The position numbers and the translations under genes are program-made. A stretch of 4,734 bases of DNA from a virus (taxonomy: Duplodnaviria; Heunggongvirae; Uroviricota; Caudoviricetes): IMG/VR virus record IMGVR_UViG_2778261417_000009; one strand, written 5' to 3'. The notes under the pieces are model-generated. The model was given only the letters and a program-made list of their open reading frames with translations. It made no database searches and was not told the origin of the DNA. How positions within the stretch are numbered: position 1 is the stretch's first letter; each line of letters begins with the position of its first letter. Positions 1-4,734 of this stretch are shown here, one piece after another.

Positions 1-40
1 CCACGGGAATATCTGCGGCAGCGGGCTTGTAATGGGTTAA

Positions 41-553
41 GTGATAACAGATGTCTGGAAATATAGGGGCAAATCCAATAGTGCAGGAAAGTTACGCTAT
101 TCGTTTAAGGAGGTTTCAGCAGTAAGCCTGAATGGTGTTGCCGGAGGTAACGGTTTTTGTATCGACAGTTTTGATATTCAGTTCGATAACAAACTCCAGA
201 CACAGCGTTGTATCGGGACTGGCTCGCCTTATGCAGGAGCAAATATTCCGACTACTTTTACACCGTCCGGTACGGTGACGCTTTCATGGTCTAAAGCCGC
301 GTGGGAAATCTGGAGTAAAACACTGACTGGAGAAACAGTTCCGTTCAGCTTCACGCTTTCGAATGGAGAGGGGGCATACACTTTCAGTTTCCCGAAGGTT
401 CAGGTGTCAGGTGAATGGCCTGATGGGGGTAATACTGACATTATCCAGGTTCAATTGAGCATTACCGCAGCAGATGAAGCACCTACGATAACCAGAAAAA
501 AATGCTCCCCGACTGCCGTGATCGCAAAAGCCAGTGCTGATGCGATTAGTTGA
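41..553 (+). CDS. Candidate major tail (tube) protein, ~170 aa; start codon uncertain (GTG at 41 immediately after an in-frame TAA at 38-40)
   Basis: Open frame 41-553 from the six-frame track. Position immediately upstream of the chaperone and tape measure genes matches the conserved order major tail protein - chaperone - tape measure. The Gly/Ser/Thr-rich, beta-strand-like composition (e.g. GTVTLSWSKAAWEIWSKTLTGETVPFSFTLSNGEGAYTFSFPKVQVSGEW) fits small tail tube proteins. No internal Met exists, so the start must be GTG 41 or another non-ATG codon, with no clear Shine-Dalgarno upstream. The call rests on synteny, not on recognised motifs. Confidence 0.5.
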   Translation: MITDVWKYRGKSNSAGKLRYSFKEVSAVSLNGVAGGNGFCIDSFDIQFDNKLQTQRCIGTGSPYAGANIPTTFTPSGTVTLSWSKAAWEIWSKTLTGETVPFSFTLSNGEGAYTFSFPKVQVSGEWPDGGNTDIIQVQLSITAADEAPTITRKKCSPTAVIAKASADAIS

Positions 554-601: not shown

Positions 602-1063
602 ATGAGGTTATGGATGTTTATTCTTAATCAGAAAATTATCACCGGTGGAGAACGCTGGTTTACGCCAATGAAGGACTTAAAACCTGTAGACGGGTTAAAA
701 CTGTTGGTGGCAAGCAGCGATAACGATCAGTATCGCTCCCGTAATGCATTAATCCGTCGTCACATTGAGAAAATGGATGCCAGTTTGCACGTCGGAACGA
801 AGGAGTTTGATATTTCAAAGGTTTCCGAGGTAGATTCTGTTGATGATTTACTCATTGATAATGCCGCTCGTTATCTGCTGAAAGACTGGAAAGGGGTTGG
901 TGAACTGGTTAATGGTGCTGAGGTTGCACTGGAATATACGCCAGAACGAGGGATCGCGCTGCTTAAGCAGAATCCAGAGTTGTACTGGCAGATCCTTGCA
1001 GAAGCAGCCAGCATCGCCCAGGGTAAAGAGCAGCAGAAGCAGGATACGATAAAAAAGCCATAG
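602..1063 (+). CDS. Tail assembly chaperone, short (zero-frame) product, lambda gpG analogue
   Basis: 153-aa ORF lying between the candidate tube gene and the tape measure gene. It ends in TAG at 1061-1063, one codon after a canonical slippery heptamer, with an overlapping open -1 frame. Purine-rich Shine-Dalgarno (GGGGG, 588-592) sits 9 nt upstream of ATG 602. Alternative starts at ATG 614 and ATG 668 cannot be excluded. Confidence 0.7.
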   Translation: MRLWMFILNQKIITGGERWFTPMKDLKPVDGLKLLVASSDNDQYRSRNALIRRHIEKMDASLHVGTKEFDISKVSEVDSVDDLLIDNAARYLLKDWKGVGELVNGAEVALEYTPERGIALLKQNPELYWQILAEAASIAQGKEQQKQDTIKKP

Positions 1064-1371
1064 CCGCCCAGCGGTGGTTATCGGAGTTCGGGGGAGAAAG
1101 GGGGGAAAAGGCAAGATGGAAGCGAGAAAAACTCAGGTTGCCACCGATACCGGAACCAGAAATAGACCCGGTGCTTAAGGAATTGTTGTACGCCTATTCG
1201 GTAATATCCCGTGCCCGACGTTATGCTGGAATGACCGGGGTGCCTTTGCCTTTATCTCTGACAGAGATAAATGAATATTTAGCCACTCATCCGGTATTGA
1301 TTGAGCGCGATGAGTTTGAAGCAGTGATCTTTGCACTGGATGACCAGTATTTTCAGGAGCAGTGTGTGTAG
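602..1371 (+). CDS. Tail assembly chaperone, long product made by -1 programmed ribosomal frameshift at 1051-1057 (lambda gpGT analogue); predicted ~256 aa (152 aa zero frame + 104 aa from the -1 frame, 1057-1371)
   Basis: The zero-frame codons AAA (1052-1054) and AAG (1055-1057) sit in the heptamer A AAA AAG (1051-1057). The -1 frame is open from 1027 to the TAG at 1369-1371. The only start the ORF track finds for this frame is a TTG at 1138 with no Shine-Dalgarno, so independent translation is unlikely. The arrangement matches the conserved chaperone frameshift found upstream of tape measure genes in long-tailed phages. Confidence 0.6.
1051..1057 (+). other. -1 programmed ribosomal frameshift slippery heptamer A AAA AAG
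   Basis: Read directly from the sequence: ...ACG ATA AAA AAG CCA TAG in the chaperone frame. The heptamer is identical to the classic E. coli dnaX slippery sequence. An AGGA (1041-1044) lies 6 nt upstream and a short GC-rich stem (about 1063-1077) begins about 6 nt downstream; both are possible stimulators. Confidence 0.65.
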
Positions 1372-1534: not shown

Positions 1535-4500
1535 ATGGCAGAGCAAACCTCGCGTCTCGCAATAATTATTGATAGCACTGGAGCAAAAAATAATGCTGAC
1601 AATCTGACCTCCTCATTAGTCAAAATGACGCAGGCCGGGGAAACTGCTGCAAATAGCGCAGGGAAAGTGACTAAGGCAACAGAAGATGAGAAGAACGCGC
1701 TCGCAAAATTAAAAGCAGCTATTGATCCAGTTGGTGCCGCAATTGATACTGTCGGTCGACGCTATTCTGAATTAAAGAAATTTTTCGATAAAGGGCTTAT
1801 TGATAAAGAAGAATATGAATTTCTTGTCCGTAAACTTAATGAAACCACAGAGGAATTGAGCGGGGTTGCGCAAGCGCAGAGAGAAGCCGAGAAGGCCGGA
1901 AAACTTGCTGCCGCCCAGCAGGAATCGCAGGCTCAGGCCTTTCAAAGAATGCTGGACAAGATCGACCCTCTGGTTGCGGCGCTAAGAAATCTTGAACAAC
2001 AGCAGGATGAACTTAATGCTGCGTTTGCATCCGGGAAAATAAATGGTTCTCAGTTTGAGAATTATAGCCGAAAAATACAGGAAACACGGCGAGAGCTTAC
2101 CGGAGAGGCTCAGGCAGAGCGAGAAGCAGCAAAAGCGCATGATGAACAGGTTGCTGCTTTGCAACGTCTGATTGCTCAACTTGACCCTGTCGGAACTGCT
2201 TTTAATCGTCTGGTAGAACAACAGAAACAGCTCAATGAAGCAAAAGCTAAGGGGATGCTCTCTCCTGAAATGTATGAGGAACTTTCTGGAAAACTTCGTG
2301 CTATGCGGAGTGAGCTTGAGGTTACTCAATCTCAATTAAGCAAAACCGGAATGTCGGCAAAACAAACGGCTTTTGCTATGCGCATGTTGCCTGCACAAAT
2401 GACGGATATTGTTGTTGGGTTGTCCACTGGTCAGTCGCCTTTTTTGGTGTTAATGCAGCAGGGCGGCCAGCTAAAAGATATGTTCGGTGGGATTGGCCCG
2501 GCGATCAAAGGTGTTGGTTCTTATGTGCTGGGATTAATTAATCCTTTTACCCTGGCCGCAGCAGCCGTTGGCGTCTTAGGGCTGGCTTACTATAAAGGCT
2601 CTCAGGAGCAGGACGAATTTAATAAATCTCTTATTCTTACCGGAAATCAGTTGGGGACAACCAGCGGGCAATTGGGCGATATAGCTCAACGTGCCGGGAA
2701 TGCGGCTGATTCGACAACTGGTGCTGCGGCGGCAGTATTAAATCAGCTTGTGCGTTCGGGAAAGGTAGCGAGCAGTTCGCTGGAGCAAGTGACGACAGCG
2801 ATAGTAAAAACGAGCGAAGTAACAGGAATATCAACCGAACAACTGGTTAATGACTTCAATGAAATTGCAAAGGATCCTGTCAGTGCCATATCAAAACTTA
2901 ATGATCAGTACCATTTTCTGACACTTGCGACTTATAACCAGATTAAGGCGCTACAGGATGAAGGGAACCAGCAGGAGGCCGCCCGCATTGCGACAGAAGA
3001 ATACTCATCTTCAATGATCCAGCGCACCAACCAGATTAAAGAAAATCTTGGTTATCTTGAGACTGCATGGAAAGCTGTCGCAGACTCCGCAAAATGGGCA
3101 TGGGATTCCATGCTGGATATTGGCCGTGAGGCCTCCCTTGATCAAAAAATCTCAGATGTTCTCCGTCAAATTGATGAAATAGAAAAAAATACCCGACCCG
3201 GAGTTTTCGGGTTAGGTGGCATTGGAGATGGCGGAGCTCAAAATAAAAGGCTGGCACGATTAAAGCAGCAATTGGGCGTACTTCAAGCAGAAAAAATTGC
3301 TCAGGACGTCCTAAATTCATCAATAAACGATTACAACAAGCGACAACAGGAAGGAATTGAACTCAGACAGAGAGCAGATGCCTTTTCAAAACAATATCAG
3401 ACCCGGGAGCAGCAGAGAGCTAGTGAACTTGCAAAACTGGAAAAGCTAAAGAGTCAGTATTCAAAGGAAGAATATAATAATTTTATCGCTCAAATAAATG
3501 AGCGTTATAAAGATCCAAAGCAACCAAAGGCGAAAGGTTATTCGGATGATGCTGCCCAACGAATGATTGATCATCTGAATCAACAGAATGCGTTACTAAG
3601 TTCACAAACTGAATTAACCGTTAAATTAAGTTCCTCTGAACAGGAACTGGTTAAGTGGCGTCAGCAGATTGCCGACCTGGAGTCACGACCGTCATCGAAA
3701 TTAACCCAGGATCAGAAATCGCTTCTCTTACACCGGGAAGAAATAACCGCGTTGATGGAGAAAAATGTTGCGATTGAAAAAAATAACAGGCTAATCAAGG
3801 AATCCGCCGAAATAGCTGCATGGCGTGATTCATTGCAGGCTTCGATTGATAATCGTCAACAGGGGTATGATATTCAGATTGCTGGTTATGGGGTTGGCGA
3901 TAAAAATCAGCAACGCCAGCAGGAATTACTGCGGATTGAACGTGAATATAACAATCAGCGTCTGCAACTTGAACGTGACTATGCAGATAAATCCCGTGGG
4001 ATGTCAAATCATGTTTTTCAGGAGAAAATGCAGGCTCTGAATGATGCTCTGGAACGAGAAAAAGAAATTGTCAGACAGAAAAACGAGCAGCTCGATATTC
4101 AGGCAGGAGACTGGGTTAGTGGTGCCTCCCAGGGATTCAATAACTGGCTGGATGACACTAAGGATATCAGTGAGCAGATAAAATCAACCACGACTCAGAT
4201 GTTTGATGGAATGACCGATGCGCTGGGTGATTTTGTCACGACAGGCAAGGCAAATTTTCGTTCTTTCGCTACTTCCGTGATTTCGGATCTTAGTCGAATA
4301 GCATTAAAGGCTTCAATTACTGGGATTTTCGACAGCATTAGTAACAGTTCTTCTGGGGGGATTTTAGGAACTATCGGGAGTGCTATTAGTAAATTTATTC
4401 CGAATGCAAAGGGCGGTGTTTATGAGTCTCCGTCATTGAACACGTATTCGAACGGTATTTATGATTCCCCGCAATTTTTTGCTTTTGCAAGAGGGGCTGG

Positions 4501-4609
4501 TGTTTTTGGTGAGGCTGGTCCGGAAGCCATTATGCCATTAACACGAACTTCCGATGGTTCTCTTGGTGTCAGAGCTATTAATAGTAAAAGTGGTAATGGA
4601 GGCGGGTAA
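1535..4609 (+). CDS. Tail tape measure protein, lambda gpH family, 1024 aa
   Basis: Single 3075-nt ORF with GGAG (1522-1525) 9 nt upstream of ATG 1535. The N-terminal ~270 aa are alpha-helical, Ala/Glu/Lys/Gln-rich repeats. A conserved hydrophobic block ([39 protein letters not shown]...) follows, which as I recall closely matches lambda gpH ([12 protein letters not shown]...GGQSPWLILLQQGGQVKDSFGG). Further matching blocks are [14 protein letters not shown]...WDSMLDIGR and the C-terminal TTQMFDGM...FRSF region. The product ends in a Gly-rich tail (GNGGG). Its size and position after the frameshifted chaperone are as expected for a tape measure protein. Confidence 0.93.
1697..2350 (+). repeat. 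Three tandem ~70-80-aa protein-level repeats within the tape measure N-terminus (diverged at the DNA level)
   Basis: The IDP/LDP motif recurs at residues 63-65, 143-145 and 216-218. Each unit has the pattern L-x-(K/R)-(I/L)-DP-(V/L)...G-x-I...(Y/F)-E...E-T-x-x-EL-x-G-x-AQA-x-REA-x-KA, e.g. [25 protein letters not shown]... / [25 protein letters not shown]... / [26 protein letters not shown]... Confidence 0.6.
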
Positions 4610-4734
4610 TGACTCCAACTTACTGATAGTGTTTTATGTTCAGATAATGCCCGATGACTTTGTCATGCAGCTCCACCGATTTTGAGAACGACAGCGACTT
4701 CCGTCCCAGCCGTGCCAGGTGCTGCCTCAGATTC

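Follow-up and report, generated by a model that had tools for sequence, protein, structure and literature searches.

[quoted passage not shown] TMPs are the textbook molecular ruler, and a change in their length through internal repeats is an established phenomenon of which the unit described here is another example. Phages alter ruler length, and probably tail length with it, by gaining and losing such units; that the block is extended, that it affects how long the tail is and that recombination changes its copy number we infer. What is new is a specific and widespread 72–80-aa module, present in 0–5 copies at what would be the head-proximal end of lambda-family rulers.

A tape measure gene in a defective prophage

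The window is a piece of a Rac-like lambdoid E. coli prophage and is defective. Its features are as follows.

1..77, no strand assigned: right end of IS2 (context; IS2 truncates the tail tube gene on its 5′ side)
78..553, plus strand: 3′ fragment of the tail tube gene, encoding the C-terminal ~158 aa (Pfam Phage_tube_2; match to the tube protein CDS of the intact relative L001)
602..1063, plus strand: ydaY, encoding a tail assembly chaperone and placed as lambda G is (phrog_313 'Tail assembly chaperone', E 7e-47)
1051..1057, plus strand: slippery heptamer A_AAA_AAG in the ydaY zero frame, a candidate –1 frameshift site (sequence reading)
1138..1371, plus strand: T-like ORF, chaperone extension, in the –1 frame relative to ydaY (phrog_1189, E 5e-37)
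1535..4609, plus strand: TMP ORF, 1024 of 1077 aa, its stop codon supplied by the end of IS1 (Pfam domains, intact homologue)
1535..1690, plus strand: TMP leader, aa 1–52, kept in relatives at every copy number (alignment of 9 full-length relatives)
1691..1930, plus strand: repeat unit 1, aa 53–132, 80 aa, with invariant D64-P65 and G87
1931..2146, plus strand: repeat unit 2, aa 133–204, 72 aa, with invariant D144-P145 and G167
2147..2362, plus strand: repeat unit 3, aa 205–276, 72 aa, with invariant D217-P218 and G240
2333..2947, plus strand: TMP_2 core, aa 267–471, with the AMRMLPAQ block at aa 281–288 (PF06791)
4605..4734, no strand assigned: end of IS1 (context; 99% identical to IS1 in many records)

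The gene is that of a lambda-family tail TMP. Its product matches Pfam TMP_2 (2e-81), TMP_4 and Tape_meas_lam_C, scoring 273 bits against TMP_2 (PF06791, cut-off 30.2) over aa 267–471 and 91.5 bits against the lambda-type C-terminal domain (PF09718, cut-off 23), and an intact relative scores 217.6 bits against TIGR01541 (cut-off 104.75). The gene stands behind a frameshifted-type chaperone pair and ahead of the tail-tip genes, the latter as seen in L001, an intact prophage of E. coli strain Z0117EC0040, where the order is tube, ydaY, T, TMP, followed by M, L, K, I and J of lambda type; in the window itself these downstream genes are replaced by IS1. The name ydaY is the one that the chaperone gene carries in RefSeq relatives. 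From the A_AAA_AAG heptamer the –1 frame is open to 1371, and since the G/GT frameshift is known this candidate site would give a G-T-type fusion chaperone. The T-like ORF also has weak matches to Pfam Phage_TAC_18 and to phrog_3817 'tail chaperonin', and is kept upstream of the TMP gene in relatives with one, three and four units. The TMP leader is 54–96% identical among relatives, and residues 1–54 of lambda gpH occupy the same place upstream of the aligned region. The TMP_2 core contains a hydrophobic stretch at about aa 325–352 of the window protein, as read from the translation.

Both ends of the locus are insertion sequences. The first 77 nt are identical to the IS2 end in another record (L045), with divergence beyond, and position 78 of the window already falls inside the tube gene, matching L001 6001. 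On the other side the IS1 terminal inverted repeat GGTAATGACTCCAACTTACTGATAG begins at 4605, where the element has inserted and removed the last 53 aa of the TMP. The initial annotation had taken the protein to be 1024 aa long; this length is set by IS1, and the intact protein, which matches the window ORF up to residue 1024 with 4 substitutions, has 1077 aa. Copies of 1077 aa are common: the corresponding 90% cluster has 4455 members, and 14/14 of the full-length members listed are of this length. As IS1 has truncated the TMP gene and IS2 the tube gene, the TMP copy in the window cannot work and no tail is made, and the 1024-aa ORF is best annotated as an IS1-truncated pseudogene of the 1077-aa protein.

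Three diverged helical units

When aligned with one another by Smith-Waterman (BLOSUM62) the three units score 118, 85 and 97 (z = 17.7, 11.4 and 14.8), and in 1000 shuffles, which gave means of 26–28 with a standard deviation of about 5, the observed unit-pair score was never reached (0/1000). Searched with an HMM of the three units, the TMP shows precisely three strong copies and otherwise noise. Unit 3 overlaps at its end with the start of the TMP_2 match, and unit 2 represents the unit type that is duplicated once more in four-unit relatives. BLASTP of the TMP against itself returned the identity hit only and no internal repeat match, and Tandem Repeats Finder together with a repeat search on the window DNA gave nothing meaningful, a null result at the DNA level that agrees with old, diverged copies. 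Units are 31–38% identical to each other in amino acids and 40–47% in codon-aligned nucleotides (longest common word 9 nt), and from this low identity the triplication is old. Its age is also supported by the fact that units at the same position are 65–95% identical across genera versus 31–38% for paralogous units; unit types 1, 2 and 3 remain distinct across genera.

Each unit contains an Asp-Pro and a Gly that are invariant in 28/28 units compared, and the D-P, the G, an aromatic residue and the GxAQA motif align in register in 28–37 units from several genera, the last helix of the unit ending in G-x-A-Q-A-x-R-E-A-x-K-A. The units are under purifying selection (pN 0.10–0.23 versus pS 0.72–0.96; dN/dS 0.24 where measurable). 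Near-identical E. coli variants carry in-frame deletions of 25 and 37 aa inside the block.

The units have a helical character and strong heptad periodicity. An AlphaFold2 monomer model of the N-terminal part is 91% helix over aa 53–276 at moderate confidence (mean pLDDT 64), with a pTM of 0.27 that makes the overall fold unreliable, and it lays out each unit as a short helix, the Asp-Pro, a helix of ~21 aa, a 5-residue loop at the conserved Gly and a helix of ~46–53 aa. Over the same residues hydrophobicity has power at a period of 3.5 (z 9.9) and none at 3.6, the 3.5-residue periodicity in helical sequence that marks a coiled coil, and the heptad phase is hardly interrupted at the DP and Gly positions. 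Thus the central claims of the initial annotation stand: it had described three tandem N-terminal repeats at 1697–2350 (aa 55–272), which self-align significantly (z 11–18), as a helical unit of ~70–80 aa with coiled-coil character, here 72–80 aa, diverged at the nucleotide level and duplicated long ago, and the identities given above agree with both the divergence and the age.

Searches with the units and the model returned generic or sub-threshold resemblances. For the AlphaFold2 N-terminal model, Foldseek found nothing in the PDB at E<0.7, only generic helical proteins. A match of the three-unit profile to influenza HA2 residues 56–95 (E 0.03–0.1) is ascribed to chance, as a 28-unit profile gave none in the PDB at E 0.01, and weak NCBIfam matches to SMC and Rad50, which score far under the respective cut-offs, are due to coiled-coil composition. 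The unit core, in unit 1 aa 79–101, weakly resembles the ~28-aa helix-Gly-helix motif of SHOCT (PF09851) and the SHOCT-like DUF1707 (PF08044); the best single unit scores 21.1 bits against a SHOCT gathering threshold of 27 and only 5/28 units reach E<0.1, so that we regard this as resemblance and reject membership.

Unit number among relatives and its proposed consequences for the tail

We counted units by HMM in 120 homologue fragments. Proteins of the family with the 'M[AT]EQTSRLA' leader have 1, 2, 3 or 4 units and differ by whole in-register units, and more distant proteins of the wider TMP_2 family have 0–5. Full-length TMPs measure 951, 960 and 985 aa with one unit, 1024 and 1078 aa with two, 1077–1213 aa with three and 1127 and 1195 aa with four, the full-length four-unit genes being taken from L019 and P0122 (P0010, tried as a four-unit representative, is a 505-aa truncated TMP in a decayed prophage). 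In the alignment of nine full-length relatives the gaps coincide with whole units, and N-terminal length is discrete, at 128, 281 and 361 aa. In two pairs, Cama3/ST974phi18.2 and Ros3/Rnec1, the proteins are otherwise 75–87% identical and nearly equal in length, and almost the whole length difference of ~150 aa falls in the repeat block. One further protein, P0126, is an in-register fusion of units 1 and 2 at their common GxAQAxREAxKA motif. The proposal in the initial annotation that the TMP was lengthened by internal duplication is upheld by these two pairs, and the variation in unit number that it looked for among homologues is found, with 1–4 units in the leader family and 0 in lambda.

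Across 98 TMP_2-core proteins, a sample biased by having been chosen through unit-profile matches, each detected unit goes with ~57 aa more of N-terminal length (r 0.69, p 2e-15) and the remaining protein length is uncorrelated with copy number. Regressed linearly on copy number, total TMP length shows no significant trend (r 0.09) because of outliers of 1800–2000 aa; the rank correlation is significant (rho 0.40, p 4e-5). Total length follows copy number only loosely since other segments vary too, a four-unit Raoultella TMP (1127 aa) being shorter than the three-unit Kpn_R1 (1141 aa). Searching 1.84 billion representative proteins with a profile gave 426 clusters at E<=1e-3, and the best 150 of these are mostly proteins of ~850–1300 aa with 1–5 matched stretches; a recount of long units in the proteins of at least 800 aa among these 150 gave 0–9. 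Very high stretch counts (22 in P0140, 23 in P0168) are not to be taken as TMP unit numbers, and P0140 (2581 aa) was rejected as a TMP, being a GA-like-domain repeat protein.

In the mechanism that we favour, the block would be stretched out inside the tube lumen, at the end nearest the head, and act as extra ruler; the tube would go on polymerising for longer before being capped by the terminator, and copy number would shift when units recombine in register. A single unit would contribute about 11–12 nm (2.6–2.8 tube rings), and three units about 33 nm (8 rings), values of which the 11 nm per unit assumes full extension; the monomer model has a loop at the conserved Gly of each unit, and a hairpin fold-back in the tube would give less. 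At about 28 aa per ring, such a ruler would predict about 38 rings for a TMP of 1077 aa and about 34–35 for TMPs of 951–985 aa. That units may affect tail length is argued by analogy with the lambda TMP deletion work, as cited in a T1 study (PMC11945409), and with T1 itself, where a TMP of 957 aa goes with about 34 rings, each rising 42 Å, or 0.149 nm per residue (PMC11945409). Tail lengths of phiCbK are likewise well predicted by 0.15 nm per residue (PMC3556154), and deletions and a duplication in the TP901-1 TMP altered tail length in proportion (PMC5099701). A literature search for electron microscopy of phages with this TMP type (vB_EcoS-...R, ST...phi prophage records, HK639) found none, and the published cryo-EM structures of T1 and lambda do not resolve the N-terminal part of the TMP (PMC11945409, PMC12617516). 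The natural pairs that differ almost only in unit number, and whose tube and chaperone families are shared, could test for tail steps of about 2.6–2.8 rings, and equally whether what counts at the N-terminal end is length alone or a particular structure.

The invariant residues are helix breakers (D-P, G) and not core positions. This and the positional identity that the units keep across genera point to more than a passive spacer. Since unit types 1–3 do not blend from genus to genus, and since it is the helix breakers that never vary, the unit might conceivably be a helix-break-helix 'ruler quantum' with position-specific roles, docking YdaY or YdaY-T or setting the register of the TMP bundle, a reading that we put forward tentatively and think rather improbable. 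If it is true, tails should fall into discrete length classes, with N-termini of 128, about 208, 281 and 361 aa.

A related alternative is that the units are docking or oligomerisation modules for YdaY, YdaY-T or TMP chains, their number tuning assembly and length being a by-product. The invariant Asp-Pro and Gly, the purifying selection, the distinctness of unit types across genera and the sub-threshold SHOCT and DUF1707 matches in the unit core would all fit such a role, as would the speculation of Mahony et al. that TMP repeats together with hydrophobic regions help to recruit the chaperone (PMC5099701). However, YdaY, T and tube proteins of the same families work with TMPs of one, three and four units and lambda assembles with none, so no fixed number of units is needed; the SHOCT match is below threshold and confined to 5 of the 28 units, and in TP901-1 a whole repeat was swapped for alanines without effect (PMC5099701). 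We therefore hold docking as the primary function to be unlikely, and even if it occurs it does not exclude extra ruler length, with which it is compatible.

The block could instead act after ejection, when the TMP N-terminus would help to form the envelope channel, and more units would mean a longer or differently anchored conduit. A study of Ur-lambda places gpH* in the periplasmic channel, with the N-terminal third tentatively at the outer membrane (PMC12617516), and the TMP_2 core with its hydrophobic stretch follows the repeat block immediately. Yet lambda forms its channel with zero units, and one strain, Rosenbergiella metrosideri JB07, hosts both a one-unit prophage (L021, TMP of 985 aa) and a three-unit one (L018, 1095 aa), so envelope width does not explain copy number and we give this explanation very little credence. 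Finally, the view that the repeats resemble one another by chance through their coiled-coil composition, or are neutral debris of a prophage in decay, as the insertion sequences disrupting the remnant, the 25- and 37-aa deletions and the compositional SMC/Rad50 matches might suggest, is effectively refuted by composition-preserving shuffles that never came near the observed scores, by a register shared across genera and by a pN far below pS, and intact 1077-aa copies are common besides.

Comparison with known rulers

The extra ruler length that we propose is best seen against lambda gpH (853 aa; PDB 8iyk/8iyl/8k35), which belongs to the same family, with TMP_2, TMP_4 and Tape_meas_lam_C all present and the AMRMLPAQ block in common, and whose gene has the same position as here, with a G/T-type chaperone pair upstream and M, L, K, I and J downstream. 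With phmmer, aa 268–1077 of the TMP align with residues 55–850 of the lambda chain (8iyk_H, E 1e-70), and MRMLPAQ starts at aa 69 in lambda versus aa 282 here. The intact TMP is 224 aa longer than gpH, 212 of these being N-terminal, and lambda has zero units between leader and core; from the alignment and the motif offset, the extra ~212 aa are therefore the repeat block. This confirms the initial annotation, which had ascribed the extra N-terminal length mostly to the repeats.

The TMP of T1, gp38 (957 aa), which from its length appears to be the 957-aa PDB chain 9l9p_B, is homologous over most of its length (TMP 107–967 with 9l9p_B 37–868, E 5e-57), and its ring count thus calibrates ruler length inside the family. 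It contains at least one detectable unit (aa 68–140), and a tblastn alignment spans units 2–3 of the TMP, but its units are fewer and far more diverged, and its virion type differs (virulent Drexlerviridae).

That TMPs acquire and shed ruler units in the form of internal repeats has been proposed before (Belcaid et al. 2011, PMC3271669; Mahony et al. 2016, PMC5099701), and our literature search found no description of a 72–80-aa module in lambda-family rulers. As in the TMPs of Belcaid et al. (PMC3271669) and of TP901-1 (PMC5099701), the number of internal repeats varies among related phages. Those repeats, however, are of 11 or 18 aa with spaced Trp/Phe, a period that is absent here, where self-alignment and HMM give 72–80 aa with an invariant Asp-Pro and Gly; and unlike them, the units described here are confined to the N-terminal end and are old copies, 31–38% identical to one another.

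The tail module and its insertion sequences

The window is a tail-module fragment from a lambdoid, Rac-like E. coli prophage. Megablast matched it, at 99.5–99.8% identity, to several deposited prophage records and to E. coli genomes in the hundreds.

Features of the window (nucleotide positions)
1-77: IS2 right end, identical to IS2 here and divergent beyond; cuts the tube gene at its 5′ side
78-553: tail tube gene, 3′ part (Pfam Phage_tube_2)
602-1063: ydaY, tail assembly chaperone (phrog_313, E 7e-47)
1138-1371: T-like ORF, in the -1 frame relative to ydaY
1535-4609: tape measure protein (TMP) ORF (TMP_2, 273 bits; TMP_4; Tape_meas_lam_C)
4605-4734: IS1 end; deprives the TMP of its final 53 aa

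The initial annotation took the TMP to be 1024 aa long. However, the TAA closing the ORF comes from the IS1 inverted repeat, and the product matches intact 1077-aa relatives through residue 1024 with 4 substitutions and without the final 53 aa; in its cluster (4455 members), 14 of the 14 full-length members listed are 1077 aa. As the stop is supplied by IS1, the 1024-aa length is an artefact of truncation and this copy of the module is dead. Records of the exact 1024-aa product are limited to two contigs, the longest being 4734 bp, so that the window resembles an entire contig from short-read assembly, broken at insertion sequences.

Upstream of the TMP gene the canonical -1 slippery heptamer A_AAA_AAG is found at 1051–1057 in the ydaY frame, one codon ahead of the ydaY stop, and the -1 frame stays open from there across the T-like ORF to 1371, a layout that fits a lambda G/GT-type programmed frameshift; RefSeq either shows this arrangement as two separate genes or gives it no annotation. 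A terminator-like hairpin at 1495–1517 (CCCACTTCGGTGGG then CTTTTTGTT) separates the chaperone genes from the TMP gene, directly 5′ of the TMP ATG (1535). The distance from the T-like ORF to the TMP start is only 163 nt in the window, and six related loci (L003, L004, L016, L017, L019 and L022) hold 1–3.6 kb of additional DNA there. In the Klebsiella prophage ST974-OXA48phi18.2 this interval encodes a hypothetical protein and a zinc-ribbon protein, and it looks like an insertion hotspot for cargo genes.

Three tandem units ahead of the TMP_2 core

Between a leader of ~52 aa and the TMP_2 core, TMP residues 53–276 form three units in tandem.

Repeat units of the TMP
R1: residues 53-132, nt 1691-1930, 80 aa
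R2: residues 133-204, nt 1931-2146, 72 aa
R3: residues 205-276, nt 2147-2362, 72 aa

Three diverged copies of an old duplication had been proposed here from the sequence, and both the number and the age are upheld. Unit-against-unit local alignments score 118, 85 and 97 over shuffle means of 26–28 (sd ~5; z = 11–18), with 0 of 1000 shuffles reaching the observed scores, and a unit HMM run on the TMP recovers exactly three copies, namely R1–R3. The units share 31–38% amino acid and 40–47% codon-aligned nucleotide identity, and neither Tandem Repeats Finder nor a separate repeat search detected DNA-level repeats in the window. The repeat is real and old.

The window protein, which has all the testable defining features of the lambda TMP family, belongs to that family. 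Lambda gpH itself has zero units. The conserved AMRMLPAQ block begins at aa 281 in the window TMP and the corresponding MRMLPAQ at aa 69 in lambda gpH, and phmmer aligns the window TMP with the deposited TMP of lambda from residues 268 and 55 onward, respectively; the three units therefore explain the N-terminal excess over lambda. Weak unit-core-like matches (G-hydrophobic-x4-Y/F) also occur centrally, at aa 410–439 of lambda gpH and 627–657 of the window TMP (independent E 0.001 and 0.045), and could be degenerate relics of the unit motif or chance.

Across 28 aligned units from several genera (consensus xxALxRLxxxIDPVxAAxxxLxxQQxxLxxAxxxGxLxxExYDxLSxKLxETRxELxGxAQAxRxAxKA), only an Asp-Pro (D64-P65, D144-P145 and D217-P218 in the window TMP) and one Gly (G87, G167 and G240) are invariant. 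An AlphaFold2 model of TMP residues 1–300, built from an 18-sequence alignment (mean pLDDT 64; unit cores 75–83), predicts the repeat block to be 91% helix, in which the D-P motifs each interrupt the helix for a single residue and the conserved Gly positions each bring a loop of 5 residues, with no other breaks. Hydrophobicity over the whole block has a z of 9.9 at a 3.5-residue period with no power at 3.6, and the local heptad phase is almost uninterrupted across the D-P and Gly sites, making 'coiled-coil repeat', the label first given, fair at the level of sequence. A SHOCT-like core is matched weakly, below the Pfam threshold, in 5 of the 28 units, a likeness for which we reject SHOCT membership; Pfam, NCBIfam and PHROGs contain no separate model for the unit. 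The pN of 0.10–0.23 versus pS of 0.72–0.96, with a dN/dS of 0.24 in the sole unsaturated pair, shows that the units are under purifying selection, and constraint on them is weaker than on the start of the TMP_2 core.

Unit number among relatives

Homologues with the 'M[AT]EQTSRLA' leader carry one, two, three or four units.

Full-length TMPs by unit number
1 unit: Rosenbergiella L021 (985 aa) and L022 (951 aa); Klebsiella prophage ST974-OXA48phi18.2 (960 aa)
2 units: P0126 (1078 aa)
3 units: E. coli / Shigella / E. ruysiae (1077 aa); Citrobacter (1091, 1111 aa); Rosenbergiella L018 (1095 aa); Klebsiella Kpn_R1 (1141 aa); Klebsiella phage 5 LV-2017 (1213 aa)
4 units: Raoultella L019 (1127 aa); P0122 (1195 aa)

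The HK639 TMP (1024 aa), with another leader type, has 2 units, the TMPs of T1 and related phages contain one or two highly diverged units, and the TMP_2 protein P0128 has five. Gaps in the multiple alignment are entire units, in register, and the N-terminus ahead of AMRM[IL]PAQ measures 128, 281 and 361 aa for 1, 3 and 4 units, so the suggested variation in copy number is found, as whole-unit differences. In P0126 units 1 and 2 are fused in register at the common GxAQAxREAxKA motif. Units in the same position are 65–95% identical across genera versus 31–38% for paralogous units, and the triplication is therefore older than these lineages; the additional unit of the 4-unit proteins is a later duplicate of the unit-2 type (57–64% identity).

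Two natural pairs are nearly isogenic apart from the repeat block. In one, 3-unit Citrobacter L017 and 1-unit ST974-OXA48phi18.2 share 75% identity past the anchor, where they measure 830 aa and 832 aa and align with just 2 gap columns. In the other, 3-unit Rosenbergiella L018 and 1-unit L022 share 87% identity past the anchor. The YdaY, T and tube families are common to 1-unit and 3-unit loci, YdaY and tube genes are present at the locus of a 4-unit fragment (L009), and the 4-unit Raoultella locus has a T-like ORF, the only one of these genes within the stretch covered. A single strain, R. metrosideri JB07, harbors one 3-unit and one 1-unit prophage.

Searching 1.84 billion representative proteins with the profile returned 426 clusters at E ≤ 1e-3, and the best 150 of these, candidate TMPs by profile match, are mostly ~850–1300 aa with 1–5 matched stretches. 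Among 98 TMP_2-core proteins, a sample skewed to unit-profile matches, each detected unit goes with ~57 aa more ahead of the core (r 0.69), the remaining protein shows no correlation of length with unit number, and total length follows unit number with a rank rho of 0.40 (p 4e-5).

Near-identical E. coli variants (P0015/P0016 and P0121) have recent in-frame deletions within the repeat block (window aa 199–235 and 256–280), one of 37 aa and the other of 25 aa flanked by a direct repeat, AMR...AMR; known from partial proteins only, these may reflect prophage decay. A common 342-aa truncated TMP (E. coli loci L014 and L015; cluster P0012, whose names read only 'phage tail tape measure protein, partial') keeps the full leader and three units and is presumably similar to tmpR/ynaA, the remnant in the Rac prophage of K-12.

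The repeat block as a proposed ruler

The best-supported reading is the one first proposed, in which the repeat block would serve as extra ruler, placed head-proximally in the TMP. That tail length is set by TMP length is established: later papers cite deletion experiments in lambda for it (Katsura and Hendrix 1984; Katsura 1987), TMP deletions and a duplication in TP901-1 shift tail length proportionally (PMC5099701), and the tails measured for phiCbK agree with a prediction at 0.15 nm per residue (PMC3556154). T1 gp38, a homologous TMP of 957 aa in a tube of ~34 rings with a 42 Å rise (PMC11945409), yields by our computation 0.149 nm per residue, or ~28 aa per ring. At this calibration each 72–80-aa unit would add ~11–12 nm (2.6–2.8 rings) and the three together ~33 nm (8 rings), and we infer ~38 rings for the intact 1077-aa TMP and ~34–35 for 1-unit relatives. 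The literature searched contained no electron microscopy of phages in this TMP subfamily, and the TMP N-terminus is without resolved density in the T1 (PMC11945409) and lambda (PMC12617516) structures.

The invariant residues of the units are helix breakers, and each positional type retains its identity across genera, which hints at a role beyond filler; the units could act as hinges, bind the chaperone or set the register of the bundle. However, a strict requirement of this kind is disfavored, as one chaperone family serves 1–4 units and lambda functions with none. If the Gly loops were true hairpin turns once the tail is assembled, the contribution per unit would fall below 11 nm, but hairpins would seem unlikely on steric grounds, as the lambda tube was recently reported to contain six gpH chains (PMC12617516).

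TMP length change via internal repeats is already established (Belcaid 2011, PMC3271669; Mahony 2016, PMC5099701) and a 2026 homorepeat paper (PMC13585406) cites tandem repeats among the causes of TMP length variation. Our literature search found no paper on this 72–80-aa unit and none tying SHOCT-like motifs to TMPs. We rate the repeat as solid and tidy yet unsurprising, an apparently undescribed unit of an established phenomenon, whose unit-number variants have modest value as a natural experimental system. The units of Belcaid and Mahony are 11 or 18 aa long with aromatic residues as their hallmark, in contrast to the present unit, which spans 72–80 aa and has D-P and G in that role.
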